Source: Candidatus Moraniibacteriota bacterium (GTDB lineage Bacteria > Patescibacteriota > Minisyncoccia > Moranbacterales > UBA1568). From it: a stretch of 64,000 bases of DNA. A program made the translations under genes and the position numbers. Position 1 is the stretch's first letter; each line of letters begins with the position of its first letter. The notes under the pieces were generated by a model. The model was given only the letters and a program-made list of their open reading frames with translations, was not told the origin of the DNA and ran no database searches. Of the stretch, positions 36,463 to 50,713 are shown in pieces. The stretch covers positions 181,958 to 245,957 of the forward strand of contig JBAQEZ010000003.1 in assembly GCA_049287005.1 (NCBI GenBank). Direction: 5' to 3'.

Positions 36463-37452
36463 ATGAAATTACCGCTTCCTTATCAAAATCAATTTTCACA
36501 GGGTCTCTATAAGCAGAGAAAAATGCTGGATGTCGTGATGCCGCATCGACTGGTTTCTCCTGTCAGAAATACATCGCAGGATGTTCGTGCCCAGAGCGTG
36601 GACATCAAGGTGACAGCAAAGAAGCGCGGATTCGATGGTATCCGTACGGAGAAACGCGCGCTTCTCCAGCAGCTGAGGACACGGTCGTTTCAGGATATTT
36701 TATGGCGTTTGTTCCGTAAAACGGAGCTGTACTGCCGTTTCGTGAAGCGGATCATCATCTCCTTCACTCCGAATATTGCCCCGCACAAGATGCTTTATGG
36801 GTCACTGATCGGCGGGGTAGCCTTTGGCATCGTTTCCATGGGATTCATAGAACATTTTTTTGGACCAGGAGTCTTTGCTCGTTCTTCCATAGAGCAGTCG
36901 GTAGCCGTCGCGACAGGAGATCCAACTGACACGGCCACCTCGATCTCTGGAGAAAATGTTGACCTGGGGCAATCGGATCAGGGGAGCGGATCAGACATCT
37001 TTTTTGAGTATTTCAATGAAGCGGCGGATGAAAAATATAAGGAGAATGTCAAAGAGATGGTCAAGGGTTACCCGATTGAGGCCATGTTGCCGTATATTTT
37101 CGAGCAAGATCGGTTGACCGTGGCGTTTCTCATAGGTATTGCCAAGAAAGAAAGCAACTGGGGGAAGCGCGTTCCGGTGCTTGATGATCAGGATTGCTTC
37201 AATTATTGGGGCTATCGCGGGATACGCCGGATGATGGGGACGGGCGGGCACACCTGCTTCAATAGTCGTCAAGACGCCGTGGAAACGGTTGCCAAGCGCC
37301 TCAACACGCTTATCCGCTCTGAGGCACTCAATACGCCGGAAAAAATGATTGTCTGGAAATGCGGGTTCAGCTGCAGCGGGCACAGTCGCGAAAGCGTGAA
37401 AAAATGGATCAGTGATGTGGATATGTACTTCAGCCAGGTGGGCGACGAATAG
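36463..37452 (+). CDS. Membrane-anchored protein with a GH73/glucosaminidase-like domain; putative peptidoglycan hydrolase (paralog 1)
   Basis: FLIGIAKKESNWGKRVP resembles the GH73 catalytic motif (A-x-x-ESGWG-x-S). A downstream FNYWGYRG resembles the YNF/Y-x-GI motif. N-terminal TM. Confidence 0.4.
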   Translation: MKLPLPYQNQFSQGLYKQRKMLDVVMPHRLVSPVRNTSQDVRAQSVDIKVTAKKRGFDGIRTEKRALLQQLRTRSFQDILWRLFRKTELYCRFVKRIIISFTPNIAPHKMLYGSLIGGVAFGIVSMGFIEHFFGPGVFARSSIEQSVAVATGDPTDTATSISGENVDLGQSDQGSGSDIFFEYFNEAADEKYKENVKEMVKGYPIEAMLPYIFEQDRLTVAFLIGIAKKESNWGKRVPVLDDQDCFNYWGYRGIRRMMGTGGHTCFNSRQDAVETVAKRLNTLIRSEALNTPEKMIVWKCGFSCSGHSRESVKKWISDVDMYFSQVGDE

Positions 37453-37647: not shown

Positions 37648-38472
37648 TTGCAGGATGGGAACAGTCACGCTATGAAGAATGGTTTCGGTGCAAGGAATTT
37701 TGGAAACTCTCTCTCGCAATTGAATATGCTCTGTCAAAGAGCGCTTTTGACGAAAAGCGGCATGTATTCCTGTCTCGCTTTTTTTTCTTTCGGTATGATG
37801 GGAATCGTACCTGTTTTGCCACGGATACCAGAGAGCGCTTCTGTTGTTCGAGGGACACTCGCGGCTATCAGTGAAAAGACGTCGGAAAATCCCTCGGCTA
37901 TGGAGCGCTGCTATTGGCAGGAGGATGTGACGCAGTTTTTGACTTTGCAAGAACAAAAGAAGGGGATCTCCCAAACAGATATCCCTTGCGCAAAGAAGCT
38001 TACGGCCAATAACCCAGAAGCGAAAAAGAAACGAATCGTTTCCGAGACTGAACTGGGCACGACGATTCATGAATTGACAGACGGATATCCGCTGCAGGCA
38101 ATGGCACCGATGATTGCACAGTATGATCGCGGCGTAGCCGCTCTCATTGTTGGGATTGCCAAGAAAGAAAGCAATTGGGGGAAACGCGTCCCACTGGATA
38201 AGGAGGGAGCAGACTGTTTCAATTATTGGGGATACAAAGGGGCGGGGACTCGCGGCGTCGCGATGGGACATGGCTGCTTCGGCAGTCCTGAGGAGGCTGT
38301 TACGGCCGTTGGCAATCGTTTGAAAACATTGGTGGCACTGAGAGAGACGAGCGCGCCGGCAGATATGATCATCTGGAAGTGCGGTTCCAGCTGCAAGGGT
38401 CACAGTGATGAGAGTGTCAGAAAATGGATCAGTGATGTTTCTCTCTATTATAATCGCGTAGCCTTCAAGTAA
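37648..38472 (+). CDS. Paralog 2 of the GH73/glucosaminidase-like domain protein. The start is uncertain.
   Basis: LIVGIAKKESNWGKRVP ... CFNYWGYKG ... IIWKCGSSCKGHSDESVRKWISDV, about 50% identical to the preceding gene over the C-terminal 150 aa. Confidence 0.4.
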   Translation: MQDGNSHAMKNGFGARNFGNSLSQLNMLCQRALLTKSGMYSCLAFFSFGMMGIVPVLPRIPESASVVRGTLAAISEKTSENPSAMERCYWQEDVTQFLTLQEQKKGISQTDIPCAKKLTANNPEAKKKRIVSETELGTTIHELTDGYPLQAMAPMIAQYDRGVAALIVGIAKKESNWGKRVPLDKEGADCFNYWGYKGAGTRGVAMGHGCFGSPEEAVTAVGNRLKTLVALRETSAPADMIIWKCGSSCKGHSDESVRKWISDVSLYYNRVAFK

Positions 38473-38745: not shown

Positions 38746-38865
38746 GACCGCACAAGTGAGAAACTTCCTTCGCTTAAAAAAGTGCGGGGAGCGGGTAATG
38801 GAAGAGGATGTCCTTTAATAGTTGTTCAACAACGCCCTAACGGGCACACGAAAGAGAGGCTCAAG

Positions 38866-40329
38866 ATGGAAAGCTCCAGAAACGTTGGTCGTGGTTCGAT
38901 CATTTGGGCGGCCCTTGTGGCTGCGTCTATTTTCCTTTCCGGCTGCGGTGGCGGCGATGGGGGGAACGAAGGGAGCGGGGGAGTAGCCCCGCCTCCCGCA
39001 CCGACCACCGTCGAGGTGGTCTGCCCCAATGGGAAGCCTTCGACGGGAGCAACGACAGCCGAGGCGAAGGCCGCCTGTCTCGTTCCGGTCGTACTCTCGG
39101 TCGTTCCGGCCGATGGCACCAAGAAGGTGGCTCTTCCCTTCGCGGGGATCGTGGTGGTGACAGACAGTCTGCTCGATATGGGCAGCTTCACGGTTACCAT
39201 CAGTGTGGGCAGCAGTGTGACGGCCAGCGGGCCTGTCACGAAGACCGACGACAAGGGATTCAAGTATCTCCCCTCGGTGGTTCTCCAGTACGGCCAGGCC
39301 TATAGCTACCTCATCAAGGGGGCGGATACGTTCGGCAAGCCGATCGAGGCCAGCGGGTCGTTCACTACGGCCACGCAATCCTTCGACAAGGCGGTGGTAT
39401 CGGGGGCAGTGTCCATCACCATGATGGATCTCACCACATCTGCCACCCAGACGCCGACGATTACCGATAGCGGTTGTCTCGGCGTGGCCTATAACGGTCA
39501 GACGGGGATGATCCGCATCTACTGTTCCGCATCCCCGACCACGAAGTATTTCTGGGATGTCGACCCTATCACGGCAGCCGCGACACCGGTGACAGCACCC
39601 TTCGCGGGCTTTGATGGGGTGGCCAAGGCGCTCTTGTCTATCGGCGCGAACGGCCGGCAGTACTATGTAGTCGGCTTTCCTCTGAGCGGCAAATCCAGCT
39701 CGCGGGTGGTGGCAGTGGATAACGGCGGCACCAAGCTCGCCGAAATCCCGCTCTCAACTCATGCTACTTCTTCCGACTACATCCTCTGGATGCAGCTGGA
39801 TGAAGCGAGCGGAAAGCTGTGGATCGCTTCCCGGGGCGGCGTTCTGGATCGTATTGATCTGGGGACGCTGAAAACCGATCTGTCTATCGCCACGGCCACG
39901 ACGCTCAACATGATGAAAATCATGGGTGGCAATGTCATCGTCGCTGTGGACCGCACGACATCCGGAGCCGACGCCCTCGTTTTCAACAAGCTGACGGGAG
40001 CCAAAGTGAAGGAGATCGCTTTGCCGGCTACGGGAACAACCGGTGTCAGGCTGTCGTATGGCATGGTGCTCACGACAAGCGATATCGTGATCGCGTCACC
40101 GGGCGGATACTACCGTCTTGACCCGGAAACCTTTGCCGTACGGGGGTTCGTGCCGGTCGCTGTGTTTTTCGGCGGCACCTCCGATGACATGATCAGTGTC
40201 AGCGGGCACGTCTACGGGAATCACGCGGATGACATCTTCAGTCTTCCGCTGGATCTCTCGGTGGCGACGAAAATCGCCACAGTAGCCGGCTCGCGGGGTG
40301 TCACGCGCGTCACGAACGTTACGCCCTAG
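38866..40329 (+). CDS. Hypothetical secreted lipoprotein (about 490 aa, beta-rich)
   Basis: Start MESSRNV with an AAGAGAGG ribosome-binding site. Signal peptide plus lipobox IFLSGC followed by a Gly-rich linker. Threonine/valine-rich beta-strand pattern throughout. Confidence 0.5.
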   Translation: MESSRNVGRGSIIWAALVAASIFLSGCGGGDGGNEGSGGVAPPPAPTTVEVVCPNGKPSTGATTAEAKAACLVPVVLSVVPADGTKKVALPFAGIVVVTDSLLDMGSFTVTISVGSSVTASGPVTKTDDKGFKYLPSVVLQYGQAYSYLIKGADTFGKPIEASGSFTTATQSFDKAVVSGAVSITMMDLTTSATQTPTITDSGCLGVAYNGQTGMIRIYCSASPTTKYFWDVDPITAAATPVTAPFAGFDGVAKALLSIGANGRQYYVVGFPLSGKSSSRVVAVDNGGTKLAEIPLSTHATSSDYILWMQLDEASGKLWIASRGGVLDRIDLGTLKTDLSIATATTLNMMKIMGGNVIVAVDRTTSGADALVFNKLTGAKVKEIALPATGTTGVRLSYGMVLTTSDIVIASPGGYYRLDPETFAVRGFVPVAVFFGGTSDDMISVSGHVYGNHADDIFSLPLDLSVATKIATVAGSRGVTRVTNVTP

Positions 40330-40354
40330 TTCCTTCAGAGTCGCACTGATGACT

Positions 40355-40394
40355 CGCCGCTACGCACAGTTTTCCCTGCGTAGCGGCTTTTTTA
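40355..40394 (+). terminator. Strong rho-independent terminator
   Basis: CGCCGCTACGCAcagttttcccTGCGTAGCGGC followed by TTTTTTAT. Confidence 0.85.
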
Positions 40395-40479
40395 TACTTG
40401 CAACCACTCGACAGATTTCTTGATGAGTATCCAGTGCGAGGTTTCGTGCTCTCTCTTTTTGTCCGTTCCCCTCCGTTCT

Positions 40480-42657
40480 TCAGGCATGAGAATCGTCTGA
40501 GTCGGCGGCGTACGAGGCGGGGCTGTCAGAATGTGAATATATATACGTATCACGCAGGCCTAAATCCTTTGTGAGGAGGAGTGCCGCTTCGATCAACTGG
40601 TCGGATAGCGCGGCGTTTTCCGTTATGCCGGTCGATGTGGACGCTCGCGGGTATTTCAGGAGCAGCGTCTGTCCGTATGGGTGACGCTCTTCCGGGCAGT
40701 CATCTGGGACGATACCCACGAATTCCGCTCCCCTCAGGACGACTGATTGCGGCGCACAATGAAAATTCGCAAGACAGAGGGCAAAACATACGATAGTATT
40801 GCCATGTTGATTCCCGCTGTCAGACGTCAGCAACCGTGAAGCGGGTGTACAGAGGAGTCGGTCACTACCGAGATCTGTACGAAGAAGCGTAATCTGTCCG
40901 GCGATATTCCCATTCCTCTCTGTAGCGATAAGCACGAAATGTTTGGCAATATTTTTTTCATACTGCTTTTCATCCACCGTCAGCGGCTGCCAGCATTGAT
41001 GGTAAAGCTGATAGGAGGCGTGTATTCTGGGCGAGTGCGGAACAAGAAGAGAAAACGTGAGGTGATCCGTTTTCAAAAGTTCCTGTATCAGTTCGAACTG
41101 ATTCGGCGGCAGCTGTTTCTTGAGAACAGTGCGCTGCACTTTCCCCGTCGAAGTCATAGGGAGTTTTTCTGATGCGATGGAGGTGATATATCGTGGGGTC
41201 TCATAGGTGCTGATGTGCGGCGATTCCGAGAGCAACAGGAGTTTCAGATGTCTCGTCTTGTTCTCAATATCGACGCCGGGCTTCCAACAAATGGCAGCCG
41301 CGACCTCCTCTCCATAGCGATCATCCGTTACGCTGATGACGTAGGCCTGATCGATATCGGCCGATATTTTCTTGAGACTATTTTCTACGGCGGAGGGAGA
41401 AATATTGACACCGCCTTTGATGATGATTTCTTTTTTTCTCCCTTTGAGGAAAAAGAAACGCCGCCCTTCGAGAATTTTGAACAATCCGATGTCTCCCGTC
41501 AAAAAATATCCGTCCCGAAAAGCTGGCTCTCCGCCCACGTATCCATCCATGACAGCCGCTCCTGCAACGATAAGCTCGCCCTCTTCGTTTTCGTTGAGGA
41601 TTACACCGGCGTCATCCGCAATTTGCAGATCCGCCCAGGGCATCGGAATACCGATAGAATTCGCTTCAATCATCTCTTGATACAGGTTCGCAGAGAGATC
41701 CATCGGTACGCCCGTCACACGGAGGGACGTTTCGGTTTGACCATAGCCTTGATAGAGCGGGATGTGGTATTTATTGTGGAATTCAAAAACGCTTTGCGCA
41801 ATGACGGGAGCAGAACCGATCTGGATCCGATTCAAGAGCAGCTCTTTTTTTACGGACGCGTATTCGGACTCGCGGCTGAGTTGGTCGTGCACGATGGACT
41901 GAACGATGGACGTGAACGTCGTACGGGTTGCGGCGGCCTGATGCCAGAAGTTCGAATTCGAATACGCCGGGGGGATGGCGATGGAGCCGCCAGACAGCAG
42001 TGTCGCGAGACAGAACGTTGTTGAATTGATATGGTGGAGCGGCAAATTGACGAGAAAACGATCTCGTTCCTCTATCCGCAGCCAGTGGCGGATGCCGTTC
42101 GCGTTCACTACGAGATTCTGTAGTGAGAGTTTCGCGCCCTTAGGATAGCCGGTGGTTCCGGAGGTAAATAAAATAAGCGCGAGGTGCGACAGGTCGTCTG
42201 CCCATGGCGTGTTCCCGATCGCTGTGCGCGGCAATGCGGAAAATATCTCGATCTTGATTCCCGAAAAACCGTCACGATCGATAGTTTCAGATATTTTGTC
42301 TTGGATGATGAGCAGCTTGGCGTGGTTCAGCGCGATTTTGTACCGATAGAGCTCGCTGGTATCATGCTTGACGTCGAGGGGAACGGTAACGATACCTATG
42401 CTCCATGCCGCCCAACTGAGTATCAGGAGTTCTGTTGAGTTGCTGAACGCCAGCGCAATGCGGCTGTCTTTTCGGAGCCCTAACCCCAAGAGGTAGGCGG
42501 CGGCATCTTCTATCTTTTCTGCCAGCCGACCATAAGAAATCTCCTCAGTGATGAGCCCATCTTGCGCGCAAGAGAGGAGAGCGATCTTTTCGGGATTATT
42601 TTTCGCCGCAGAAGCGAAGAAAGAGTGAAGATTTTCAGCGGGAGAGGTCGCTTTCAT
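40480..42657 (-). CDS. AMP-dependent synthetase/ligase (fatty acyl-AMP ligase or acyl-CoA synthetase-like adenylation enzyme) fused to a C-terminal domain of about 195 aa of unknown function
   Basis: ANL-superfamily core motifs: LFTSGTTGYPKGA (A3), YGQTE (A5), LTGDIG (A7), GRKKEIIIKGGVNISP (A8), PMTSTGKVQR (A10 Lys). The C-terminal region (GNTIVCFALCL ... VLRGAEFVGI) has no motif I can assign. Confidence 0.8.
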   Translation of the reverse strand: MKATSPAENLHSFFASAAKNNPEKIALLSCAQDGLITEEISYGRLAEKIEDAAAYLLGLGLRKDSRIALAFSNSTELLILSWAAWSIGIVTVPLDVKHDTSELYRYKIALNHAKLLIIQDKISETIDRDGFSGIKIEIFSALPRTAIGNTPWADDLSHLALILFTSGTTGYPKGAKLSLQNLVVNANGIRHWLRIEERDRFLVNLPLHHINSTTFCLATLLSGGSIAIPPAYSNSNFWHQAAATRTTFTSIVQSIVHDQLSRESEYASVKKELLLNRIQIGSAPVIAQSVFEFHNKYHIPLYQGYGQTETSLRVTGVPMDLSANLYQEMIEANSIGIPMPWADLQIADDAGVILNENEEGELIVAGAAVMDGYVGGEPAFRDGYFLTGDIGLFKILEGRRFFFLKGRKKEIIIKGGVNISPSAVENSLKKISADIDQAYVISVTDDRYGEEVAAAICWKPGVDIENKTRHLKLLLLSESPHISTYETPRYITSIASEKLPMTSTGKVQRTVLKKQLPPNQFELIQELLKTDHLTFSLLVPHSPRIHASYQLYHQCWQPLTVDEKQYEKNIAKHFVLIATERNGNIAGQITLLRTDLGSDRLLCTPASRLLTSDSGNQHGNTIVCFALCLANFHCAPQSVVLRGAEFVGIVPDDCPEERHPYGQTLLLKYPRASTSTGITENAALSDQLIEAALLLTKDLGLRDTYIYSHSDSPASYAADSDDSHA

Positions 42658-42800
42658 AGCTTTGAATTACGAAGCGCTGCGATATCCAGAGACAATCTTT
42701 ATCACCAAAAGCAGGCTTATTTTAAAACATGATAAGTATAACATATATGAATTTCGCGATCTGCAAGATCCGTTGAAGCGCATTGGTTTCAAAACCTCAT

Positions 42801-42829
42801 TTGAAATTGTCGCCGTATTCTGTTAAAAT
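42801..42829 (+). promoter_or_regulatory. Candidate sigma70-type promoter TTGAAA-17 nt-TAAAAT
   Basis: TTGAAA at 42801-42806, a 17-nt spacer, TAAAAT at 42824-42829, about 40 nt before the 42868 start. It lies in the divergent region between the FAAL-like gene and the PKS-like operon. Confidence 0.5.
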
Positions 42830-42867
42830 AGAAGAGTTAAAGCCTGCGTTTTTAATCAATTAAAGCA

Positions 42868-43281
42868 ATGAGAAGTATGAAAATCAAAACATTATTAGGA
42901 GTCTCTGCCGTCTACATGGGACTGCTTGGACTCGGATTTTTATTGGTGCCGGGAATGATGAGTCTCGGGGCGGTTCCTGCGGGGGCATCTGCGGCGATGA
43001 TCGCCTACCTGCGTATCCCTGCCAGCCTGTTCATCGGCATAGCGGTTGTCAATTGGATGGTAAGGAAAGCGGAGCCCGATGCTGCGCTGCGAGTCATCGT
43101 TTTTGGCAACATGGTCGGTTTTGGTCTGACGGCTCTCCTGGAGGTGCTCAGCGCGTTCAGCGATAACCGTATCTCTACTTTTGTATTCGCGGCTATCAAT
43201 ATGTTTTTCGCGGTTGCTTTTCTTTTGGCGCGAGGGCAAGCGCAGCAAGCCAATCCTCAGGACCCCGGACATTTTGAGTAG
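42868..43281 (+). CDS. Small 4-TM membrane protein of unknown function
   Basis: 137 aa with four hydrophobic helices (LLGVSAVYMGLLGLGFLLV; LFIGIAVVNWMV; VIVFGNMVGFGLTALLEVL; FVFAAINMFFAVAFLL). Confidence 0.45.
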   Translation: MRSMKIKTLLGVSAVYMGLLGLGFLLVPGMMSLGAVPAGASAAMIAYLRIPASLFIGIAVVNWMVRKAEPDAALRVIVFGNMVGFGLTALLEVLSAFSDNRISTFVFAAINMFFAVAFLLARGQAQQANPQDPGHFE

Positions 43282-43483
43282 TCGTTGTTAGGCGCCTCTT
43301 CCCAGGTGACCCAAGAAAAACGTGCAATCGCTCGTGATTTATGGGTCATCTGCTCTGCCGGTCTTGTTCTGCGCGGGTACTCTGCGATTCACGGCAGGCG
43401 TACAACCTCGAGCATACGCTCGCGGGGGTTCAGGCAACGCGCTCTGCCAAAAAGCGAAACTCAGAAGGTAATCACGATACTGC

Positions 43484-45562
43484 ATGAAAAGGCACTCCTA
43501 TTACAATAATGATATTTGCGTTGTTGGCGTGGGGTGTGTTTTGCCTGGCGCGCGTAATCCTCGTGAATTTTGGAAGAACATCCTTGCAGAAAACTGTTCC
43601 ATAAAAGAAATGCCCGAAGAAAGGTTCAAAAAAAGCCTTTATTTCAGCAACGACAAAAACGAAAAGGACAAAGCGTATTCCAACCAGGCGGCGTTCATTG
43701 AAAATAGCTGGCTGGAAAAAATATGCGAAGATGCGGGCTTGGATTTCTCAAAAAACAATAGGCTGCAGGTCATGTCCGTTGAAGCGGCGCGACAAGCTCT
43801 GTCTTGTTTACGAGCCGGTTCCCTGAAAAAAAGAACGGAAAACACCTCCGTGTTTTTGGGATGCATGGAAACGGACGCCGGCTTTGCTTTAGAGAAATTT
43901 TTTTCTTATAATGAAACATCGCTGAAGAAATATATTGAAAAAAGCGGACTGAAGGATCAGCAGCGGATTTTTGGAGCGATCAAAAAACATTGCGGCGGAG
44001 GCGGGAGCACCGCCGAAAATGAAAAAATCGCGACGGTGCTGGCAATGTCAGCGGTCAGCGCGATCAAGAAACAATTCAGCGTGCGAGGAGAAGGTGTTCT
44101 CGTGGATGCCGCCTGCGCTTCGTCTTTGGCGGCTCTCGATACGGCAGCGAATGCCTTGAGAAACTATCAGACTGATTTCGCGATTACCGGAGGGGCGGAG
44201 AGCAATTTGAAACCCGATTCTTTCGTGTTATTCAGCAAGGTTGGCGCCTTATCGAGCGGCACCTGCCTGCCTTTCGACAAAAGAACCGACGGTCTGTCTC
44301 AGGGCGAGGGAGCGGTCATTTTCGCTCTACAAAGGATGGAAGACGCGGTGAAAGACAAGAACAAAATTTATGGCGTCATACAATCCATCGGCGGTTCCAG
44401 TGACGGCAGAGGGTCCAGTCTGTTTTCGCCGTCTTTGGGGGGTCAGCTTTTGGCTTATGAAAGAGCGTATCAAGGCCTCGATAAAGAGAGTGTCGATTAT
44501 ATCGAATGTCATGGCACTGGCACGAAATTGGGTGATTCGATGGAAGTGAAATCACTGAACAAATTTTTTCCTAGCGGGAAGATCCCTATCGGTTCGGTAA
44601 AATCACTGATCGGACACACCAAAGGAGCCGCCGGAGCCGCCGGACTTTTGAAATGTCTTTTGATGATGGAAAAGAAAACGATCCCGTCTTCGCGATATAT
44701 CCGATCCTCTATGGCGCCTCAAGAGGGGACAGTCTATACGAATAAAAAACCGATGCAGATTCGGCGCAAAAACAAGCCACTGCGTTTCGGAGTTTCTTCA
44801 TTCGGATTCGGCAATATCAATTACCATGTGGTGCTGGATGAATTCAAGGAGAACGGGGCAGTGATGCCGCCAGCGGTGAAGAAGCCGGCGGGTGAGCGCG
44901 AAATCGCGGTCATAGGAGAGGGTTCGGCGCGTTACGATGAAATCGATCCCAGTTTGTTCGTGGAAAAATTCAAGATTCCTCCGAAAAGCCTTCCGCACAC
45001 GGACAAAATACAATTATTGGCGCTGTCCGCCGTGCATGACGCTTTCGAAAAATCCAACATCAAAATCGATTCCTTGGATAAGGAAAAAGTGTCCGTTCTC
45101 TCCGCTTCCATCATCGGATTGGATGCGGCTTTGGATTTTGCTTATCGGATAATGACGTTTGAATTTCAGGAGGCTTTGAATTTTCTTGATGAAGAGTCGC
45201 TCAATGCGATGGTAACGTATAAGAACAGGTTTCCTGAAGTGACGGAAGATACCGGTCCCGGTATTCTGAACAATGTCATTGCGGGCAGGATCTGTAACAC
45301 GTTTGATTTCAAAGGGAAGAATTTCAATATTGATGCGGATCTCAATTCTTTTCCTGCAGCCTTGAAGATAGCTCTGGCAGAGTTTGCCAGATATGATGGC
45401 ATCATCGCGCTGGTGTTTTGCGAAGAAAAGCTCGATAAGAAAAGAATGCGCATTGCAAGGAAGCAGGCCGTATCCTGTATCTTGCTCTCGACGCTTGATG
45501 TGGCGAAACAAGAAAATTACCCGATTCGCAGGCTGATTAAAAGCGTACACTATCATGAATAA
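43484..45562 (+). CDS. Type I PKS-like beta-ketoacyl synthase with a C-terminal degenerate KS-like (chain-length-factor-type) half
   Basis: KS active-site Cys in VLVDAACASSLAALD, His in ECHGTGTKLGD and His in SLIGHTKGAAGAAG. The C-terminal 260 aa are KS-like but have Ser/Gln in place of the catalytic Cys (VLSASIIGL). Confidence 0.85.
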   Translation: MKRHSYYNNDICVVGVGCVLPGARNPREFWKNILAENCSIKEMPEERFKKSLYFSNDKNEKDKAYSNQAAFIENSWLEKICEDAGLDFSKNNRLQVMSVEAARQALSCLRAGSLKKRTENTSVFLGCMETDAGFALEKFFSYNETSLKKYIEKSGLKDQQRIFGAIKKHCGGGGSTAENEKIATVLAMSAVSAIKKQFSVRGEGVLVDAACASSLAALDTAANALRNYQTDFAITGGAESNLKPDSFVLFSKVGALSSGTCLPFDKRTDGLSQGEGAVIFALQRMEDAVKDKNKIYGVIQSIGGSSDGRGSSLFSPSLGGQLLAYERAYQGLDKESVDYIECHGTGTKLGDSMEVKSLNKFFPSGKIPIGSVKSLIGHTKGAAGAAGLLKCLLMMEKKTIPSSRYIRSSMAPQEGTVYTNKKPMQIRRKNKPLRFGVSSFGFGNINYHVVLDEFKENGAVMPPAVKKPAGEREIAVIGEGSARYDEIDPSLFVEKFKIPPKSLPHTDKIQLLALSAVHDAFEKSNIKIDSLDKEKVSVLSASIIGLDAALDFAYRIMTFEFQEALNFLDEESLNAMVTYKNRFPEVTEDTGPGILNNVIAGRICNTFDFKGKNFNIDADLNSFPAALKIALAEFARYDGIIALVFCEEKLDKKRMRIARKQAVSCILLSTLDVAKQENYPIRRLIKSVHYHE

Positions 45563-48500
45563 GAGCCAAGGACATTATTTCGGACGATACGATATTGTCG
45601 GGATCGCATATAGGGGCCCTGATTTTTCAAGACGGTGTTTTGTTTTTCCGGGGCAGGGATCGGCCTTTCCCGGGATGTGCAAAGATGAGTACCTCGCATT
45701 CAATATCATCCGAGAAAAATTTGCGCTGGCCGATGCGTTGGTGCAAAAATTTCACTTTCCCAAAATATCGGATTATATCTTACATCCTGACGGACTCAGC
45801 CAAGAAACGCTGCCGGCCATGGCGAATCTGGCTCTTTTTACTCTGGAGTCGGCCTTGTGTGATGTCCTGATTTCTTTGAAAGTTACTCCTGAGGTTATCA
45901 CCGGCCACAGTTTCGGTGAATACACGGCACTCGTGGCCTCGGGCATCCTCCCCTTTGAAGAAATGATCGCTATTATTTACCATCGAGATATGTTCTGTCC
46001 GCAGGCGCATGCTCTGGGTTTTCTGATAGCGGTGAACGCGGACGTCAAACAAGTGAAAACCATTCTGGGAACAAGGGAGTATCATATCAGCAATATCAAC
46101 AGTCCCAGACAGACTGTCATCGCGGTTGCCAAGGACGCCGTCGCTGCCGTCGCGCAGATATTTGAAAGCAAAAAAATAAAGCATAAAGTTTTATATAATG
46201 TGCCTCAGCCGTATCACTCCCCGTATTTGGAAGGATCCAAAAAGAAGATTAAAAAATATTTAAAAACCAAGCAATTTTCCTTCAGCAAGCCTAAAATCCC
46301 ATTTTTTTCCTCAGTTTTGAAGAAACTGATTGACGAAAATAATTTTAAAAAAGAAGATATAGACAAGATTCTGATCAACCAGATTACGACCCAAGTTGAT
46401 TTTATCAGTCAAAGCAAGTCGATATACGACCGCGGCTGCTCTTATTTTTTGGAAGTGGGTCCAAAAAAATTATTCGCCGTTTTTATCGATGACATTATGG
46501 CAGCGGATGCTAAGGAAGTAAAAACCGACTGCGCGCTTGGTGTGCTGCGCCAAGAGAAGCAAAATGATTTCAAACCAGTCAGTCTGAAGGGCCATAAACT
46601 GTTTACCCTGATCAGCCAGACCATCGGGAAAATCACGGGTTATGAAATCGAGAAAATATACCCCGAAGGCAGATTCCAGGAAGATTTGGGCATCGATTCC
46701 ATAAAAAGAGCCGATATCCTGCTGACGGTGTTTGATGAACTGAAGATCTTGCTGGGCGAGGATTTCAACACCTCGGAATTTAAAAGCATCAATGACGTCA
46801 TCGCGTACATCGAAAAGGCGAAGGAGGAGGGACGGACGAGGAAAGCCCTGTCCGTGGGTGCCGCTCTGGCACAGGAAAAGACACGCTTCAAAAGATATAT
46901 TTTTGTGCCGGTCGCAGAGTCTTTGCCGCAAAAGTATTTTTTGGACGCTTCTCGCAAGGATGGATATTTTCTACTGCCTCTTTCTGACATTGTGCGAAAG
47001 AGTGGGGATGCTTTGGAGCGGCTACGATCTTTTTGCGAGGCACTCGGGAAGAAAATGAGGAGACCCGACATCATCATCCTCGCCGATGGGATCCAGTTTG
47101 ATTTCGCTACGATGATGCTGATTTTCAAGTTCTTCAGGGAGTACGCGCGTTCGGCAGTCGAAGATGGGGTGAATGTGGTTCTTCTTTCCGCGGGTCGAGA
47201 TGCGCACCCCTATATCTATGGGCTGGCTTCTTTCCTGAAATCCCTGAAAAAAGAATTCCCCGGGATGTTTTTCAAGCACATCCATTATGACAGGATGGGC
47301 GCTGAGCGAGAGGCGCTGCGCGTCGCTTGCCAAGAAGCGCGGGAAACTGACGGTATGGATGTCGTGTATAAAAACGGAAAAAGATTTGTTTTGAAACCCA
47401 GGCTTGCGCAAGCAGGAAAGAAACCAAACTTGAATGAGAGCTCGGTGGTTGTGGCGATCGGCGGGGCAAAAGGCATCACTTTTTCGCTCATCAAGAACAT
47501 CTCACGAAAATACAAGCCGGTTCTCTATCTGGCTGGTAAAAGTCGGGAAGATGACAAGGTGGTGCGGGCTCATATCGAGGAGCTGAAGAAAGAGAATCCC
47601 AACATATATTATGCATCACTCGATGCCTGTGATATGAGATCTCTGGATAAGCTTTTTGCCAGCATAAAAAAGCAGCATAAAAAGATTGATCTGGTGATCA
47701 ACGGCGCGGGTACGGTCAAGATAGGATTCTTGAAAGAAAAAACTGATGAGGATATGGAGTCTGAATTCTATAACAAAGTCCTGCCCGCTTTTCATATTTT
47801 AAACCTCGCATCAAAATATAAGCCCAAGAGAATCATTCATTTTTCATCCATCATTTCAAGATACGGCAGCGCCGGCCAGAGCGTTTATACGGCAGCGAAT
47901 GAACTCGTGAGCGGATTAACCGCGGCCTATGCCACGGTTCTGAAAAAGTCCGGCACCAGAGCGTCTGTCGTTCATTGGCCGCCATGGGATAGCATAGGAA
48001 TGACCGGGAACCAAGGCGTGTCCCAAAAATTGAAAGAGGCCGGGGTTTCCTTGTTGGGCTCGAGGAAGGCGGATACATTATTTTTGTCCGACCTCTCTTC
48101 TCCCGGAGAAGGCGCGGTGTATTATCTGGATGAAGCGGACGACAGATTCTATTCCTTTGCCTTGAATAATCTGGAGCCATTTCGGTCTTTGATAGGCGAG
48201 ATAGCGGATCCCTTCAGTCTTTCGGCATCCAGGGCAGTTTTCCGTAAAATATTCGATTTGCAAAGCGATACGTATCTGAAAGATCATATGGTACGCGGCA
48301 CAAGCTATGTCCCGGCCGCGGTGGGAATAGGCATGTTCCTGTGTTTGGGGAAAATGTATGGGAAGCGATTTCCCGTGCTGAAGAATATCGCCATAAATAA
48401 TCCGATCATAGTGAAGGAGAGGCCGGCGGAGTGTTTGTTGGAGACCACGAGCAAAGATGGGCTTCATTTGTTCTCTATAAAATCGTATGTACCCCACTTC

Positions 48501-49013
48501 TCTGCCGAAGCGGCGTACCCAGAAGAAAAGAAGATACCCCCGCGGCATTTCGTGAAAAGAGGCAAGAAAATTGAAGGCAGCACCGTCTATGCCGATTATG
48601 CCTTGAAGAATAGTCTCTTTCTGGGGACGGTTTTCCAGTCCATAGAACGGATATGGATCGGGGGGAATAACGTGGCTCTGGCTGTTATCAATAACTCCGT
48701 CTTGCTTCCGGTGTTTGGCCTGAGCATGTATGATAGATTGATTCAATGGATCGACGCCTCTTTCCAGGCGCTGGGTGTCGCGGCGCTCAGACACGACGCC
48801 ATCCTGTTGCCGGTAGGCGTTGCCAGTCTTTCCTTTTTTCCCAACGCCGAAATTTCTCAGCGTGTGTATGCGATACCTTCGTCAGTCGTAGCTACCGACG
48901 CTGGTGTGCAGGGGGATGTGGCATTGGTCAACGAAAAAGGGGAAGTGATTCTTGATTTAGTCGGGATTTTCCTGAAGAAGACAGAAGATAATCAAATATC
49001 AAACGAAAAATGA
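45555..49013 (+). CDS. Multidomain PKS-like protein with acyltransferase, ACP, ketoreductase and dehydratase domains, in that order
   Basis: AT: FPGQGSAFPGM and GHSFGEY. ACP: EDLGIDSIKRADIL (phosphopantetheine attachment Ser). KR: VVVAIGGAKGITFSL Rossmann fold and YTAANELV. DH: H-x-x-x-G-x-x-x-x-P in DHMVRGTSYVPAA and a D-x-x-x-Q motif in WIDASFQAL. Overlaps the KS gene stop by 8 nt. Confidence 0.85.
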   Translation: MNKSQGHYFGRYDIVGIAYRGPDFSRRCFVFPGQGSAFPGMCKDEYLAFNIIREKFALADALVQKFHFPKISDYILHPDGLSQETLPAMANLALFTLESALCDVLISLKVTPEVITGHSFGEYTALVASGILPFEEMIAIIYHRDMFCPQAHALGFLIAVNADVKQVKTILGTREYHISNINSPRQTVIAVAKDAVAAVAQIFESKKIKHKVLYNVPQPYHSPYLEGSKKKIKKYLKTKQFSFSKPKIPFFSSVLKKLIDENNFKKEDIDKILINQITTQVDFISQSKSIYDRGCSYFLEVGPKKLFAVFIDDIMAADAKEVKTDCALGVLRQEKQNDFKPVSLKGHKLFTLISQTIGKITGYEIEKIYPEGRFQEDLGIDSIKRADILLTVFDELKILLGEDFNTSEFKSINDVIAYIEKAKEEGRTRKALSVGAALAQEKTRFKRYIFVPVAESLPQKYFLDASRKDGYFLLPLSDIVRKSGDALERLRSFCEALGKKMRRPDIIILADGIQFDFATMMLIFKFFREYARSAVEDGVNVVLLSAGRDAHPYIYGLASFLKSLKKEFPGMFFKHIHYDRMGAEREALRVACQEARETDGMDVVYKNGKRFVLKPRLAQAGKKPNLNESSVVVAIGGAKGITFSLIKNISRKYKPVLYLAGKSREDDKVVRAHIEELKKENPNIYYASLDACDMRSLDKLFASIKKQHKKIDLVINGAGTVKIGFLKEKTDEDMESEFYNKVLPAFHILNLASKYKPKRIIHFSSIISRYGSAGQSVYTAANELVSGLTAAYATVLKKSGTRASVVHWPPWDSIGMTGNQGVSQKLKEAGVSLLGSRKADTLFLSDLSSPGEGAVYYLDEADDRFYSFALNNLEPFRSLIGEIADPFSLSASRAVFRKIFDLQSDTYLKDHMVRGTSYVPAAVGIGMFLCLGKMYGKRFPVLKNIAINNPIIVKERPAECLLETTSKDGLHLFSIKSYVPHFSAEAAYPEEKKIPPRHFVKRGKKIEGSTVYADYALKNSLFLGTVFQSIERIWIGGNNVALAVINNSVLLPVFGLSMYDRLIQWIDASFQALGVAALRHDAILLPVGVASLSFFPNAEISQRVYAIPSSVVATDAGVQGDVALVNEKGEVILDLVGIFLKKTEDNQISNEK

Positions 49014-49636
49014 AGCATCCGAAAGACTTTCGTGGCCAAACCAGGCTCGCGACCCGCGTCGCTCGATCTCTGGCGCAGCCACAGGGACAGGCGCAAGCGG
49101 ATCTATGGGATATAGACCAGCAACGGTCAGTGGCGGATGTGTTGGTGTATGAGTTGACGGGGAAAAAAATGAGCCGTTCCCAAATGGGCAGACCCCGTAT
49201 CGGTACATCGGCGGACGTATCTCTCTCCCATAAGAATGACTTTGTTGCCGTGGCTACCGTTCCGGCGCCGTACAGGATCGGCATTGATGTGGAACATCTC
49301 GTGACCGGCTTGAACGCAGAACTTTTTTTCGGGCCGGCAATAACAAGCCGTGAGTTGCCTTTTTTCAAGACGTTTTGTGAAAAAAACAACTTTTCTTATT
49401 CTTCCGGAGTTGCCGTCTTCTGGTCCATCAAGGAATCCTTTTTTAAGTGTCTTGATTATGATTTCAAACCTGCTAAGATAAGCGTGCGGAGCATTTCAGG
49501 AAAAGGGAAAATCCGTTTTGATATGTCTGATGAAATAAAAACACTGATGGAGGGGAGAGGCTTGGCGCTGTGTTCGTCAAAGACGCTGTTGCGGGGCGAG
49601 CATATTTTTTCTCAAACAGTCATGAGAAAAATGTAA
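49010..49636 (+). CDS. 4'-phosphopantetheinyl transferase (Sfp-type)
   Basis: PPTase motifs G-x-D in RIGIDVEHL and W-x-x-KES-x-x-K in FWSIKESFFK. ATGA overlap with the upstream gene. Confidence 0.75.
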   Translation: MKHPKDFRGQTRLATRVARSLAQPQGQAQADLWDIDQQRSVADVLVYELTGKKMSRSQMGRPRIGTSADVSLSHKNDFVAVATVPAPYRIGIDVEHLVTGLNAELFFGPAITSRELPFFKTFCEKNNFSYSSGVAVFWSIKESFFKCLDYDFKPAKISVRSISGKGKIRFDMSDEIKTLMEGRGLALCSSKTLLRGEHIFSQTVMRKM

Positions 49637-49645
49637 GGTCGTTCT

Positions 49646-50713
49646 GTGGACACATACCAATATCATATGAAGCATCAACAGGAGGCCCTGCAACGCTGGC
49701 AGACACTGGATATCATAAAAACCGTCGGGCTTTTGGGTGCGCTTTTTTTCCATGTTTTCGTCTGGTGGTTCGGAAAAAATTGGGGAGCAACAGGCGCCGC
49801 CTTCTATAGTTTCATCGGAGCACCCGTGTGGCTCATGCTTACTTTTTTGGTAGTCATCCATTTTCTTCTGTTGTCCGCGGGCGCCTCATTGTACTTTTAT
49901 CTGAAGAAATATCAGCCAACGCTCAAAACAATACTGCTTCGAGTAGTCCTGTTATTGTTACTGGGTGTCGTATTCGGATTGAATCTGCACCCTCTGGTGG
50001 TGTTTTGGAATGTTTTTATGCTGTATGCCGTTTCGGTCTTGACCATTTTTCTCCTGGATCGTTATGTCGGAAAGCGGGCGATTATGATGCTGACCGCGGC
50101 ATCTCTCCTCCTCACGCCTTTTTTGCGTTTCTTTTTGGGTACGATGGCTCCGCAGCATTATGCGTCGTACGTTCTTGTCGGTGACCCGGCGGGTATCGCA
50201 AGTTTTTACCCTTTTTTTCCATGGTTTTTTCTGATGGGCGCTGGATTCTTAACCAGTCATTTCTATCGCCAGTACCAGAAGGCAAAACTCCTTGGATATG
50301 GGTTGTTTGGCGGAGCGATAACTACATTGCTCGTCGTGCCCTTTTTGCGAATACCTGATTTTACCAATATTTTCGGCTTCACCTCTCAAATGTCGATAAG
50401 TTATGCCGTGCTCATGGCTTCCACTTTCATTTTTCTGGTCTCTTGGCTGGAGTTGCTTTTGCACAACATAAAACTTTCTCCGTATAACCCGGCTGTCGCT
50501 CTCGGCAGGCACATTTTGCCGGTGTATCTGACGACGGTTTTTATCACTCTGATCATGGTGCCTCTGATGAAACAATACGTACACTATAGAGACGGTACCC
50601 GTGTTTTTCTGATTCTTGAGATCATGACATTTCTCATCGCGTATCTGGTGGCGGCTCTGTTGACGTGCCGCGCCGTTAGACGGAGAGATCATCGCGCGGC
50701 CCCTTTTGCATAA
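49646..50713 (+). CDS. Integral membrane acyltransferase (acyltransferase-3/OafA/OpgC-like family)
   Basis: N-terminal family signature R-x-x-x-LD-x-x-K-x-x-x-x-x-x-V-x-x-x-H in QRWQTLDIIKTVGLLGALFFHVF. About 10 TMs. GTG start with a TAAGGT ribosome-binding site. Confidence 0.55.
   Translation: MDTYQYHMKHQQEALQRWQTLDIIKTVGLLGALFFHVFVWWFGKNWGATGAAFYSFIGAPVWLMLTFLVVIHFLLLSAGASLYFYLKKYQPTLKTILLRVVLLLLLGVVFGLNLHPLVVFWNVFMLYAVSVLTIFLLDRYVGKRAIMMLTAASLLLTPFLRFFLGTMAPQHYASYVLVGDPAGIASFYPFFPWFFLMGAGFLTSHFYRQYQKAKLLGYGLFGGAITTLLVVPFLRIPDFTNIFGFTSQMSISYAVLMASTFIFLVSWLELLLHNIKLSPYNPAVALGRHILPVYLTTVFITLIMVPLMKQYVHYRDGTRVFLILEIMTFLIAYLVAALLTCRAVRRRDHRAAPFA

Follow-up and report, generated by a model that had tools for sequence, protein, structure and literature searches.

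A Patescibacteria fusion of an acyl-CoA ligase with a decarboxylase-type GNAT-like domain and its degenerate copy in a Moraniibacteriota genome

The gene described here is located in a 64,000-nucleotide stretch of a Candidatus Moraniibacteriota contig, referred to below as the window. The gene codes for an acyl-CoA ligase with a C-terminal extension and lies divergently beside a block of polyketide synthase (PKS)-like genes (Table 1). The A10 lysine of the ligase (K506) is followed by 219 residues. An extension of about 195 residues behind the A10 motif had been predicted from this DNA, and residues about 530-725 with the stop codon do occupy 40480-41070; the stretch can be aligned to over 100 homologues without any change of frame. 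Within the extension HLTFSLLV begins at residue 532 (nt 41064), and residues 712-725, SPASYAADSDDSHA, make up the acidic tail. The gene could be aligned by tblastn over its full length, in a single frame, to the homologues P0002 and P0009. A protein from a Moraniibacteriota MAG at NCBI (P0001) differs from the window protein by one residue over its 677 aa. A promoter and terminator scan of 40200-43550 gave nothing over the shuffled expectation, and nothing in this region points to an internal start from which the tail could be expressed as a gene of its own.

Table 1 Features of the fusion gene and of the adjacent PKS-like block (positions within the window)
Feature	Position	Strand	Basis or remark
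Whole gene, acyl-CoA ligase + GNAT-like domain fusion	40480..42657	-	725 aa, ORF list; stop codon 40480-40482
Residues 1-517, AMP-forming acyl-CoA ligase (ANL) part	41107..42657	-	Pfam, NCBIfam, PDB sequence matches
A10 motif PMTSTGKVQR, residues 500-509, catalytic Lys506	41131..41160	-	motif position
Residues 518-709: linker helix, then degenerate GNAT-like domain of the CurA GNAT_L / decarboxylase type	40531..41106	-	
VCFALCLANFHC, residues 623-634: remnant active-site strand, deletion junction, kept His633	40756..40791	-	HMMER alignment to 2REE, column counts
DDCPEE, residues 652-657: Cys654 for Arg, Glu657 for Asp	40687..40704	-	column counts; pLDDT < 50
LLLKYP, residues 665-670: kept Tyr669 (CurA Tyr419)	40648..40665	-	column counts
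Acidic C-terminal tail, residues 710-725	40483..40530	-	non-conserved; predicted disordered, pLDDT < 50
Divergent PKS-like block, 137-aa membrane protein first; probably a separate system	42868..49636	+	Pfam
KS	43484-45562	+	Pfam
AT-(weak ACP)-KR-DH	45555-49013	+	Pfam
PPTase	49010-49636	+	Pfam

The ligase part carries the core motifs TSGTTGYPKG, GYGQTE and GDIG and the A10 lysine. The A10 motif PMTSTGKVQR was unchanged in an alignment of 18 homologues, and the window protein keeps 191 of the 198 ligase columns that are conserved in its family. Pfam AMP-binding (PF00501) matched residues 15-373 at 1.2e-58, and AMP-binding_C (PF13193) reached 24.3 bits over residues 424-506, slightly below its cut-off of 24.5. 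The best NCBIfam matches were acyl-CoA ligases below their curated cut-offs, headed by NF004837 with 271 bits against a cut-off of 476. No substrate-specific equivalog was reached among the best 25 of 108 matches, which all fell far under the curated cut-offs, so that the substrate of the ligase cannot be read from them; the MatB literature provided no usable clue to it either. The closest PDB sequences are those of oxalyl-CoA synthetase 6qjz (4e-43), 5ie0, FadD13, MenE and the malonyl-CoA synthetase MatB (4fuq, 1.3e-29). Similarity to fatty-acyl-CoA, feruloyl-CoA and o-succinylbenzoate-CoA ligases was also found (NCBIfam, PDB). The enzyme had been compared with starter-unit-loading fatty acyl-AMP ligases (FAALs). 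Its best solved relatives are CoA ligases, and residues 42-515 align to residues 46-510 of the CoA ligase FadD13 without space for a FAAL-type insertion of about 20 residues. By its sequence, the N-terminal part resembles an acyl-CoA ligase more than a FAAL. Pfam detected no PP-binding (ACP) match in the protein, and the chain ends after the tail domain.

Fusion of this ligase to the same tail was found in over 100 Patescibacteria/CPR homologues with lengths of about 745-760 aa, originating from MAGs of Kaiser-, Lipton-, Morani- and Parcubacteria. Of the 8000 candidates that were scored, 2493 matched at E<=1e-10. Among the best 120, almost all covered 96-100% of the query with 50-67% identity and a length of 740-790 aa; a few were shorter and fragment-like. 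A search for related loci, with a single intact tail as query, revealed ligase and tail in one contiguous frame at 26 out of 26 loci examined. The original prediction had left it to an alignment of homologues whether the fusion is conserved, and it is. The fusion constitutes a protein family that occurs widely among Patescibacteria/CPR and lacks annotation; current labels in its sources are limited to ‘AMP-dependent synthetase’, ‘long-chain acyl-CoA synthetase’ and ‘class I adenylate-forming enzyme’. No literature on a family of ligase-GNAT-like fusions in CPR was found.

The tail of the window protein shows no Pfam match, and its sole NCBIfam match, PaaK, is at chance level (E 0.14). Used as a query by itself, it retrieved nothing in a word-indexed protein search and no solved structure in a PDB sequence search. 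An exhaustive HMMER search with the window tail yielded 29 cluster representatives only, all belonging to the same family or representing its fragments. A Pfam scan of 28 tail sequences gave one weak Acetyltransf_1 match (E 0.078) besides noise; the domain is covered by no Pfam model. Searching a large protein database with the family profile A2 added no new architectures, its yield being confined to 26 short pieces of proteins from this same family. The earlier statement that the extension has no assignable motif holds for Pfam, NCBIfam and the window sequence alone, but not for the family profile, in which a CurA-type motif set is apparent.

Compared with PDB sequences, profile A2 detected the SxtA MT-DC structures 7ucl/7uci (E 2e-6), CurA GNAT_L 2ree (1e-4) and GphF 6mfc (0.12). 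The AF2 model of the intact domain of P0009 (pLDDT 93.9, pTM 0.90) had 7uci, 2ref, 2ree and 6mfc as its top four Foldseek matches, with E values of 4.5e-8 to 3.4e-6. Identity in the structural matches was 23-26% for the decarboxylases versus about 10% for acetyltransferases. Residues ~518-709 thus make up a domain with a GNAT fold that shares its ancestry with the GNAT-like decarboxylase domains of PKS loading modules (CurA GNAT_L, GphF, SxtA DC). The suggestion that a new domain was present is not supported as far as the fold is concerned, which the model, Foldseek and the profile all place in a known group.

PKS GNAT-like domains have been described previously (PMC10127204; PMC11685415). His389 and Thr355 have been put forward as the catalytic dyad behind decarboxylation by CurA (PMC3701320), with Tyr419 holding the catalytic His and Arg404 touching Thr355; decarboxylation falls drastically in the T355V mutant. 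Canonical GNAT transferases, unlike CurA with its His-Ser/Thr dyad, employ a Tyr general acid and a Glu general base. An acetyl S-transferase activity was at first reported as well for CurA GNAT_L, possibly via Arg404 (PMC3701320). Residues of the present family were put into CurA numbering by means of the HMMER alignment to 2REE. Of 117 homologues, 116 carry the His equivalent to His389 (in ‘FH’), and 111 have a Ser, within a C-x-S-x-C motif, at the position of Thr355. The equivalents of Arg404 (R of GRPED) and Tyr419 (Y of LLKYP) are found in all 117. The two Cys beside the Ser are conserved in 116/117 and 109/117 homologues.

The window copy departs from this pattern. Ala626 (in CFALC) stands at the position of CurA Thr355 and the family Ser, and Cys654 replaces the equivalent of Arg404, making the window protein the sole sequence without this Arg. 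It is likewise the only one without the Asp seen in 117/117 homologues, which is exchanged for Glu657. Two more near-invariant positions are occupied by Gln and His. The family motif YAYSRPGGLA corresponds to YIYSHSDSPA in the window; the Arg of its SRP, present in 115/117 homologues, is a His. An in-frame deletion of 31 codons is situated at about nt 40773/40774, visible as a gap in a tblastn alignment that remains in a single frame, and it reduces the Ser-to-His spacing to 6 residues; CurA has 33 there, and the range among the 117 homologues is 35-69. The same deletion junction occurs in P0001. Conserved tail columns are kept at 35 out of 61 positions. The window copy still has His633 (in NFHC) and Tyr669, as well as the two Cys of its C-x-S-x-C motif.

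A relative-rate test with 115 outgroups gave practically equal ligase identities for the window protein (0.613) and its two sisters (0.610/0.607). Tail identity was 0.377 for the window protein against 0.491/0.466 for the sisters, with the window lower in 115 of 115 comparisons. The tail of the window protein has evolved at an accelerated rate. Its AF2 model has no helices left between the strand of the Ser position and the one that follows. The pLDDT is < 50 at residues 632-641, 656-661 and 710-725 and about 70-90 in the sheet core, a confidence borrowed from the intact homologues in the alignment. Low complexity or disorder, once considered as a way in which the prediction of a domain might fail, is restricted to the last 16 residues. 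When only the excess divergence was simulated as neutral, about 10% of the sequences stayed free of stop codons; this fell to 0.45% when all divergence was taken as neutral. Neutral, pseudogene-like decay of the tail may be compatible with the first of these results. Four other family members with Ala at the Ser position look intact otherwise, so that the Ser-to-Ala exchange alone is no proof of inactivity. With the loss of universally conserved residues and of a 31-residue segment, the domain is unlikely to be catalytically decisive in the window protein, and the decarboxylase domain of this copy is probably inactive.

The reading that we infer from these data, to which we assign a probability of roughly 60%, is that the family combines a ligase with a decarboxylase for malonyl-type thioesters, and that the window copy is a ligase with a vestigial, catalytically dead tail. 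In intact members the ligase part would convert a malonate-type carboxy-acid into its CoA thioester. The C-terminal domain would subsequently decarboxylate this thioester by its His and Ser pair, supported by the Arg and Tyr, presumably yielding acetyl-CoA or another shortened acyl-CoA. The window protein would have ligase function only, with a tail kept structurally but without catalysis; its degenerate tail next to a fully conserved ligase makes a role as ligase only the most probable one.

Two observations may hint at the substrate. Oxalyl- and malonyl-CoA synthetases are among the nearest solved ligases. Furthermore, tdh-like and kbl genes lie downstream on the same strand in 5-6 of the 24 non-redundant loci, including the divergent locus L025; kbl is missing from L010. 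Kbl is a glycine C-acetyltransferase, an acetyl-CoA enzyme. Other considerations speak against such a route. The two steps would spend ATP to obtain acetyl-CoA, which is of questionable physiological sense in CPR. The substrates of the PKS GNAT-like domains are reported to be bound to an ACP, and an ACP is not fused to this protein.

The main competitor, unlikely but deserving serious attention, holds that the window tail was re-purposed, for folding, oligomerisation or docking (e.g. to the PKS), or that loss of the decarboxylase was adaptive and allows intact malonyl-CoA to reach the AT-KS from the ligase as extender units. The reading frame has remained unbroken despite the accelerated divergence, the sole indel being in frame, and the sheet core is still predicted, though with confidence that derives from intact homologues. 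The open frame, the retained His633, Tyr669 and both Cys, and the simulation together mean that some constraint, possibly for another function, may persist. The gene is also located divergently beside KS, AT-KR-DH and PPTase genes, in the window as in its closest relative. This relative, however, has an intact domain next to the same PKS neighbours, so that PKS adjacency does not demand the loss.

The wider distribution of the PKS genes bears on the same question. They adjoin the ligase in 2 of the 26 ligase loci, i.e. in the window and in the closest relative (L002), with the same arrangement; the other 24 loci lack it. At the majority of the family's loci no PKS gene lies closer than 10 kb, and in most genomes the fusion is found among housekeeping genes. 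Conversely, the PKS module occurs in 15 other metagenome loci, none of which (0/15) has the ligase nearby, which counts against re-purposing for the PKS. The adjacency of ligase and PKS is lineage-specific. A general link between the tail and the PKS module was considered and rejected on these counts. The original prediction that the tail may set the substrate or acceptor of a PKS pathway appears weak on the same counts.

It is improbable that the domain of the family is a true GNAT acyltransferase, comparable to an N-acyl-amino-acid synthase or an S-acyltransferase, passing the acyl group from CoA to an amine, a hydroxyl or the thiol of a carrier protein. The GNAT fold would suit this, as would the acetyl S-transferase activity originally reported for CurA GNAT_L (PMC3701320), and the two conserved Cys flanking the Ser could hold an acyl intermediate. 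Against it, the top four structural matches all decarboxylate malonyl-type thioesters, and the family keeps the His-Ser/Thr dyad that was contrasted with canonical GNATs (PMC3701320).

Regulation of the protein by itself would be another role for a GNAT fold attached straight after the A10 motif. Acetylation of the A10 Lys is a classic way of regulating ANL enzymes (Pat/AcuA systems), and the domain might in the same manner be a lysine acetyltransferase that silences its own ligase at K506. This is very improbable: no protein-lysine acetyltransferase targeting ANL enzymes appeared near the top of the structural matches, and the conserved residues are the decarboxylase set. An artefactual origin of the extension, whether by frameshift, by read-through, by assembly fusion of two genes or as a disordered low-complexity tail, can practically be dismissed, despite the acidic, non-conserved and predictedly disordered last 16 residues and the missing Pfam match. 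The fusion recurs in many independent assemblies and at all 26 loci examined, runs in one frame over its whole length and has a high-confidence fold when intact, and the deletion junction of the window copy appears again in another public record, with one residue different elsewhere; the frameshift or assembly error that had been considered is unsupported.

With the tail recognised as a GNAT domain of the decarboxylase type, about 210 unannotated residues throughout a Patescibacteria family gain a concrete candidate reaction, and the family may represent a fused ‘activate then decarboxylate’ enzyme that yields acetyl-CoA or another acyl-CoA. To our knowledge, the GNAT-like domain was until now tied to assembly lines, such as those of cyanobacteria and myxobacteria, and to their loading modules. 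The range of these PKS domains is extended to a new architecture and a new phylum. A more far-reaching proposal is tentative and rather doubtful: the CPR fusion might be a free-standing route on one polypeptide from malonate or another beta-carboxy acid to acetyl- or acyl-CoA in organisms of minimal metabolism, and the first decarboxylase of the GNAT-like, PKS-loading type to work with no ACP fused to it and away from any assembly line, possibly related to the ancestor of the PKS domains, with the window copy as a natural decarboxylase knock-out beside a PKS-like module that needs malonyl-CoA. Being degenerate, the window copy is unfit for predicting the starter unit of the neighbouring PKS-like genes.

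Several known systems resemble the family in part. With the PKS GNAT-like domains (CurA 2REE/2REF, GphF 6MFC, SxtA DC 7UCI/7UCL) it shares counterparts of His389, Arg404 and Tyr419, and has a Ser for Thr355. Those domains reside in a loading module before an ACP, in cyanobacteria and myxobacteria, whereas the family domain is C-terminal on an acyl-CoA ligase, without ACP, and occurs in Patescibacteria. The family furthermore adds a C-terminal helix-strand-helix of ~40 residues and the C-x-S-x-C motif. Of the shared residues the window copy keeps His and Tyr but has lost Ser and Arg, together with 31 residues.

Conversion of malonate to malonyl-CoA, followed by decarboxylation, is performed by the separate enzymes MatB and MatA (malonyl-CoA decarboxylase, MCD). 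The chemistry proposed for the family would be the same, with an ANL ligase and a GNAT-fold His-Ser decarboxylase (4FUQ; 2YGW, 4KSA), but with both putative activities on one chain. MCD has an N-terminal helical oligomerisation domain that the family protein lacks, and an Asp where CurA and the family carry Arg404 (PMC3701320). Oxalyl-CoA synthetase and FadD13 are nearer to the family ligase than MatB.

FAALs share the adenylating type of the ANL superfamily, and PKS-like neighbours are present in the window genome. Unlike in FAALs, the best matches of the family protein are CoA ligases, no ACP follows, and PKS adjacency is confined to the two loci mentioned. The acetyltransferases of the Pat type are likewise two-part proteins in which a CoA-thioester-related domain is joined to a GNAT fold. 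The large domain of Pat is NDP-forming and its GNAT domain a lysine acetyltransferase; in the present family, by contrast, the large domain is AMP-forming, and sequence, structure and conserved residues all assign the GNAT domain to the decarboxylase type.

The ligase-tail gene codes for a protein of 725 amino acids, in which Pfam recognizes an AMP-binding domain (residues 15-373, 1.2e-58) and, at a borderline score, AMP-binding_C (residues 424-506). No Pfam match was found beyond AMP-binding_C, nor when the last 206 residues were scanned alone, and a scan of tail sequences showed that no Pfam model covers the tail. Many NCBIfam acyl-CoA-ligase models match up to approximately residue 517, all far under their curated cut-offs, and the tail itself matched NCBIfam at chance level only. 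The A10 motif PMTSTGKVQR occupies residues 500-509. The original prediction had described an unassigned C-terminal domain by three sequence strings, which were located at residues 532-539, 623-634 and 712-725. Its description and coordinates were correct, as ~210 residues past the ligase part are without an assigned family in Pfam and NCBIfam.

A protein search with the whole protein as query returned thousands of matches. The best 120 are nearly all 740-790 amino acids long, with 96-100 % query coverage and 50-67 % identity, while the few shorter proteins among them are apparently fragments. These homologues originate from MAGs of Kaiserbacteria, Liptonbacteria, Moraniibacteriota, Parcubacteria and the "Patescibacteria group". 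Whether the fusion is conserved had been left to a multiple alignment of homologues. Indeed, the tail is conserved in an alignment of 18 sequences (blocks LAGQIA-IRT, VCISICS, DPV--FH-KPKGG---GA-LV-VIP-GRPED-SSLGYNMLLKYP and QLIEAVLL-A-D-GI--VYAYSRPGGLA), and each of the 26 genome and assembly loci retrieved encodes ligase and tail contiguously. Two homologues aligned to the window by tblastn over their full length, in a single alignment and a single frame. Furthermore, P0001, a partial NCBI protein from a Moraniibacteriota MAG, is identical over 677 amino acids bar one ligase-part residue and has the same tail sequence. Together with the many full-length homologues, these data exclude a frameshift or gene-fusion artefact. 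A low-complexity tail is likewise excluded, save at the very end, where 16 acidic residues lack conservation and are predicted to be disordered.

The window tail alone retrieved nothing in an indexed protein search and matched none of the solved structures. An exhaustive HMMER search of 1.8 billion cluster representatives yielded 29 matches only, all belonging to the same family. A profile of 28 homologous tails (A2) matched, among PDB sequences, the SxtA methyltransferase-decarboxylase didomain (7UCL/7UCI, E 2e-6), the loading GNAT_L domain of CurA (2REE, E 1e-4) and the GphF GNAT-like decarboxylase (6MFC, E 0.12). These matches bear out the guess that the tail might be GNAT-like and, at the level of sequence, place it among the decarboxylase-type GNAT domains. 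It is not a new fold, since this domain type is already known from these three proteins.

A catalytic dyad of His389 and Thr355 has been proposed for the malonyl-CoA decarboxylase activity of CurA, most of which was gone in H389A, H389N and T355V mutants. This dyad is common to malonyl-CoA decarboxylases; Tyr419 of CurA holds the His and Arg404 contacts Thr355, whereas canonical GNAT transferases have Tyr and Glu in place of the dyad (PMC3701320). HMMER alignment to 2REE (CurA numbering being the chain index plus 215) matched Thr355 with the Ser at the centre of the family's C-[IV]-S-I-C motif, His389 with the His of "FH", Arg404 with the Arg of "GRPED" and Tyr419 with the Tyr of "LLKYP". The Ser is present in 111 and the His in 116 of 117 full-length homologues, the Arg and Tyr in all 117. 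By this alignment the family keeps the whole decarboxylase residue set, and it is mainly for this reason that decarboxylation would be the preferred chemistry of the family, ahead of acyl transfer and lysine acetylation. In alignment A2 the Ser position is flanked by two cysteines (C-x-S-x-C), the first conserved in 116/117 and the second in 109/117 sequences; CurA has only the second. A sub-family with shorter tails (P0109, P0114, P0115, P0118 and P0120 type) lacks a hairpin of 27 residues behind the LAGQI strand as well as the PKGG loop, and all four of Ser, His, Arg and Tyr are kept. Tail size thus varies naturally within the family, though not where the window copy has its deletion.

The closest solved relatives of the ligase part are the oxalyl-CoA synthetases 6qjz (4e-43) and 5ie0, with feruloyl-/fatty-acyl-CoA synthetase, FadD13, MenE and malonyl-CoA synthetase (4fuq, 1.3e-29) as further relatives. 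Residues 42-515 align with FadD13 46-510, leaving no room for a FAAL-type insertion. Both this alignment and the CoA ligases being the closest relatives speak against the earlier reading as a FAAL. The short-dicarboxylate ligases among the best relatives would fit a substrate bearing another carboxylate that the tail could take off, although scores are similar for ligases of fatty-acyl and aromatic-acid type. It is proposed that, in the family, a malonate-type acid is adenylated by the ANL part and turned into its CoA thioester. The GNAT-like part would bind this thioester and take off the beta-carboxylate via the His/Ser pair, supported by Arg and Tyr, which would yield acetyl-CoA or a shortened acyl-CoA.

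The window copy has Ala626 at the family Ser position, Cys654 at the invariant Arg and Glu657 at the invariant Asp, as well as Gln where Tyr stands in 116/117 and His where Arg stands in 115/117 homologues. Ser-to-His spacing is 6 residues, compared to 35-69 in the 117 homologues, and tblastn revealed a clean in-frame deletion of 31 codons. In the AF2 model of the intact P0009 tail domain, the deleted segment corresponds to residues 121-150, which take in a loop and one helix as well as the beginning of the His-carrying helix. An AlphaFold model of the full window protein still predicts the tail strands, but strands 621-629 and 645-650 are not linked by any helix, and pLDDT is <50 at residues 632-641, 656-661 and 710-725. 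Of the columns at least 90 % conserved in the 117 homologues, the ligase part of the window protein retains 191 of 198, the tail 35 of 61. A tail score this low is otherwise seen in just four highly divergent family members, whose ligase part has diverged as well. Relative rates were compared with the sisters P0002 and P0003 against 115 outgroups. Ligase-part identities are 0.613 for the window and 0.610/0.607 for the sisters, i.e. equal rates, while tail identities are 0.377 versus 0.491/0.466, lower in 115/115 comparisons. The window lineage thus shows a clear excess of tail change. There are two caveats to this picture of degeneration: four family members that otherwise look intact share the Ala at the Ser position, and the reading frame of the tail is still uninterrupted. 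When neutral change was simulated in a simple way, 10 % of runs were stop-free if only the excess divergence was neutral and 0.45 % if all was neutral. The data would fit a vestige under recently relaxed constraint as well as a non-catalytic role that has been retained. Three of the residues and segments defining an active GNAT-like decarboxylase are altered or missing in the window copy, which is best classed as a degenerate homologue and not counted among the functional members. Its decarboxylase activity has probably been lost, leaving a ligase only.

Divergently upstream of the ligase-tail gene lie genes for a 137-aa membrane protein, a ketosynthase (KS), an AT-(weak PP-binding, E 0.002)-KR-DH protein and a PPTase. 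Within the KS protein, PF00109 matches once more, in part, at aa 461-692 (2e-9), a second KS-like region. The same neighbours are found at locus L002 of P0002, the closest homologue (66 % identity). The other 24 ligase-tail loci have no PKS-like module genes within up to 10 kb, and neighbours in Kaiserbacteria-type loci are carbamoyl-phosphate synthase, UvrC, Ddl, an RRM protein and RmuC. The KS/AT-KR-DH/PPTase module was found in 15 metagenome loci (L027-L041, KS identity 56-66 %), and the ligase gene is on none of these contigs, four of which have 9.5-10 kb of sequence upstream. The adjacency is therefore lineage-specific and weak evidence for a shared pathway. The suggestion that the tail may determine the substrate or acceptor of the pathway is left without a demonstrable PKS tie. 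The module in the window also includes a 355-aa protein without a family, downstream of the PPTase; in most of the 15 contigs its homologue lies upstream of KS. The neighbouring PKS-like module needs malonyl-CoA. Speculatively, a ligase no longer destroying malonyl-CoA could be useful to this module; an intact tail persists in the sister lineage, which has the same neighbours, so tail loss is not required.

Linkage to tdh-like and kbl genes, seen in about a quarter of ligase-tail loci, is more widely spread than the PKS-like adjacency. In 5 of the 24 non-redundant loci, the divergent L025 among them, both genes follow the ligase-tail gene; the pair is absent from the window. The kbl product is a glycine C-acetyltransferase (579 bits, NCBIfam cut-off 460), an enzyme that interconverts acetyl-CoA and glycine with 2-amino-3-oxobutanoate. 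Because this reaction uses acetyl-CoA, the linkage hints at acetyl-CoA as a plausible metabolite common to kbl and the ligase-tail family. The window also encodes a POR subunit, which gives the organism at least one further way of making an acyl-CoA. Two adjacent paralogous ORFs, neither with a Pfam match, share a ~130-residue C-terminal region with conserved Cys/Trp-rich sequence (GIAKKESNWGKRVP...CFNYWGY...WKCG-SC-GHS-ESV-KWISDV). A 515-aa ORF convergent with the ligase-tail gene (GC ~0.60 versus ~0.50 around it) has a lipoprotein-like N-terminus (LSGCGGG) and a weak Ig-like (Big_5) match only, and may be horizontally acquired.

Coordinates of the ligase-tail gene and of other features in the window and in comparison loci
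Feature	Position	Strand	Remarks
Ligase-tail gene, 725 codons	40480..42657	-	ORF list; 40480-41070 is its 3' end
C-x-S-x-C site of the tail	40774-40788 (residues 624-628)		both Cys kept, Ser gone
31-codon deletion	~40773/40774
Compact PKS-like module	43484-50713	+	KS, AT-(weak PP-binding)-KR-DH, PPTase, 355-aa protein without family
POR subunit	16589-18295	+	POR_N plus POR; pyruvate/2-oxoacid:ferredoxin oxidoreductase
Paralogous ORF, first	36463-37452	+
Paralogous ORF, second	37648-38472	+
515-aa ORF	38782-40329	+
tdh-like/kbl genes directly after ligase-tail gene	L007 11580-13991	same as ligase-tail gene	also L008, L010 (tdh-like gene only, without kbl), L017, L023, L025

Database names for family members refer to adenylate-forming enzymes only, and a literature search on the tail family found nothing. 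The combination of an ANL ligase with a decarboxylase-type GNAT domain, without an ACP, appears to be undescribed, as do its mostly housekeeping neighbourhoods in Patescibacteria, the C-x-S-x-C motif, the extra C-terminal helix-strand-helix and the sub-family lacking the hairpin. The local copy serves mainly as a caution against over-reading neighbouring biosynthetic genes. The chemistry proposed for the family is the same as that of MatB plus MatA/MCD, but would be united on one chain. It is also that of the PKS GNAT-like domains, from which the family differs in having no ACP. CurA GNAT_L, GphF and SxtA DC are of the same domain type as the tail, while MCD is more distant.
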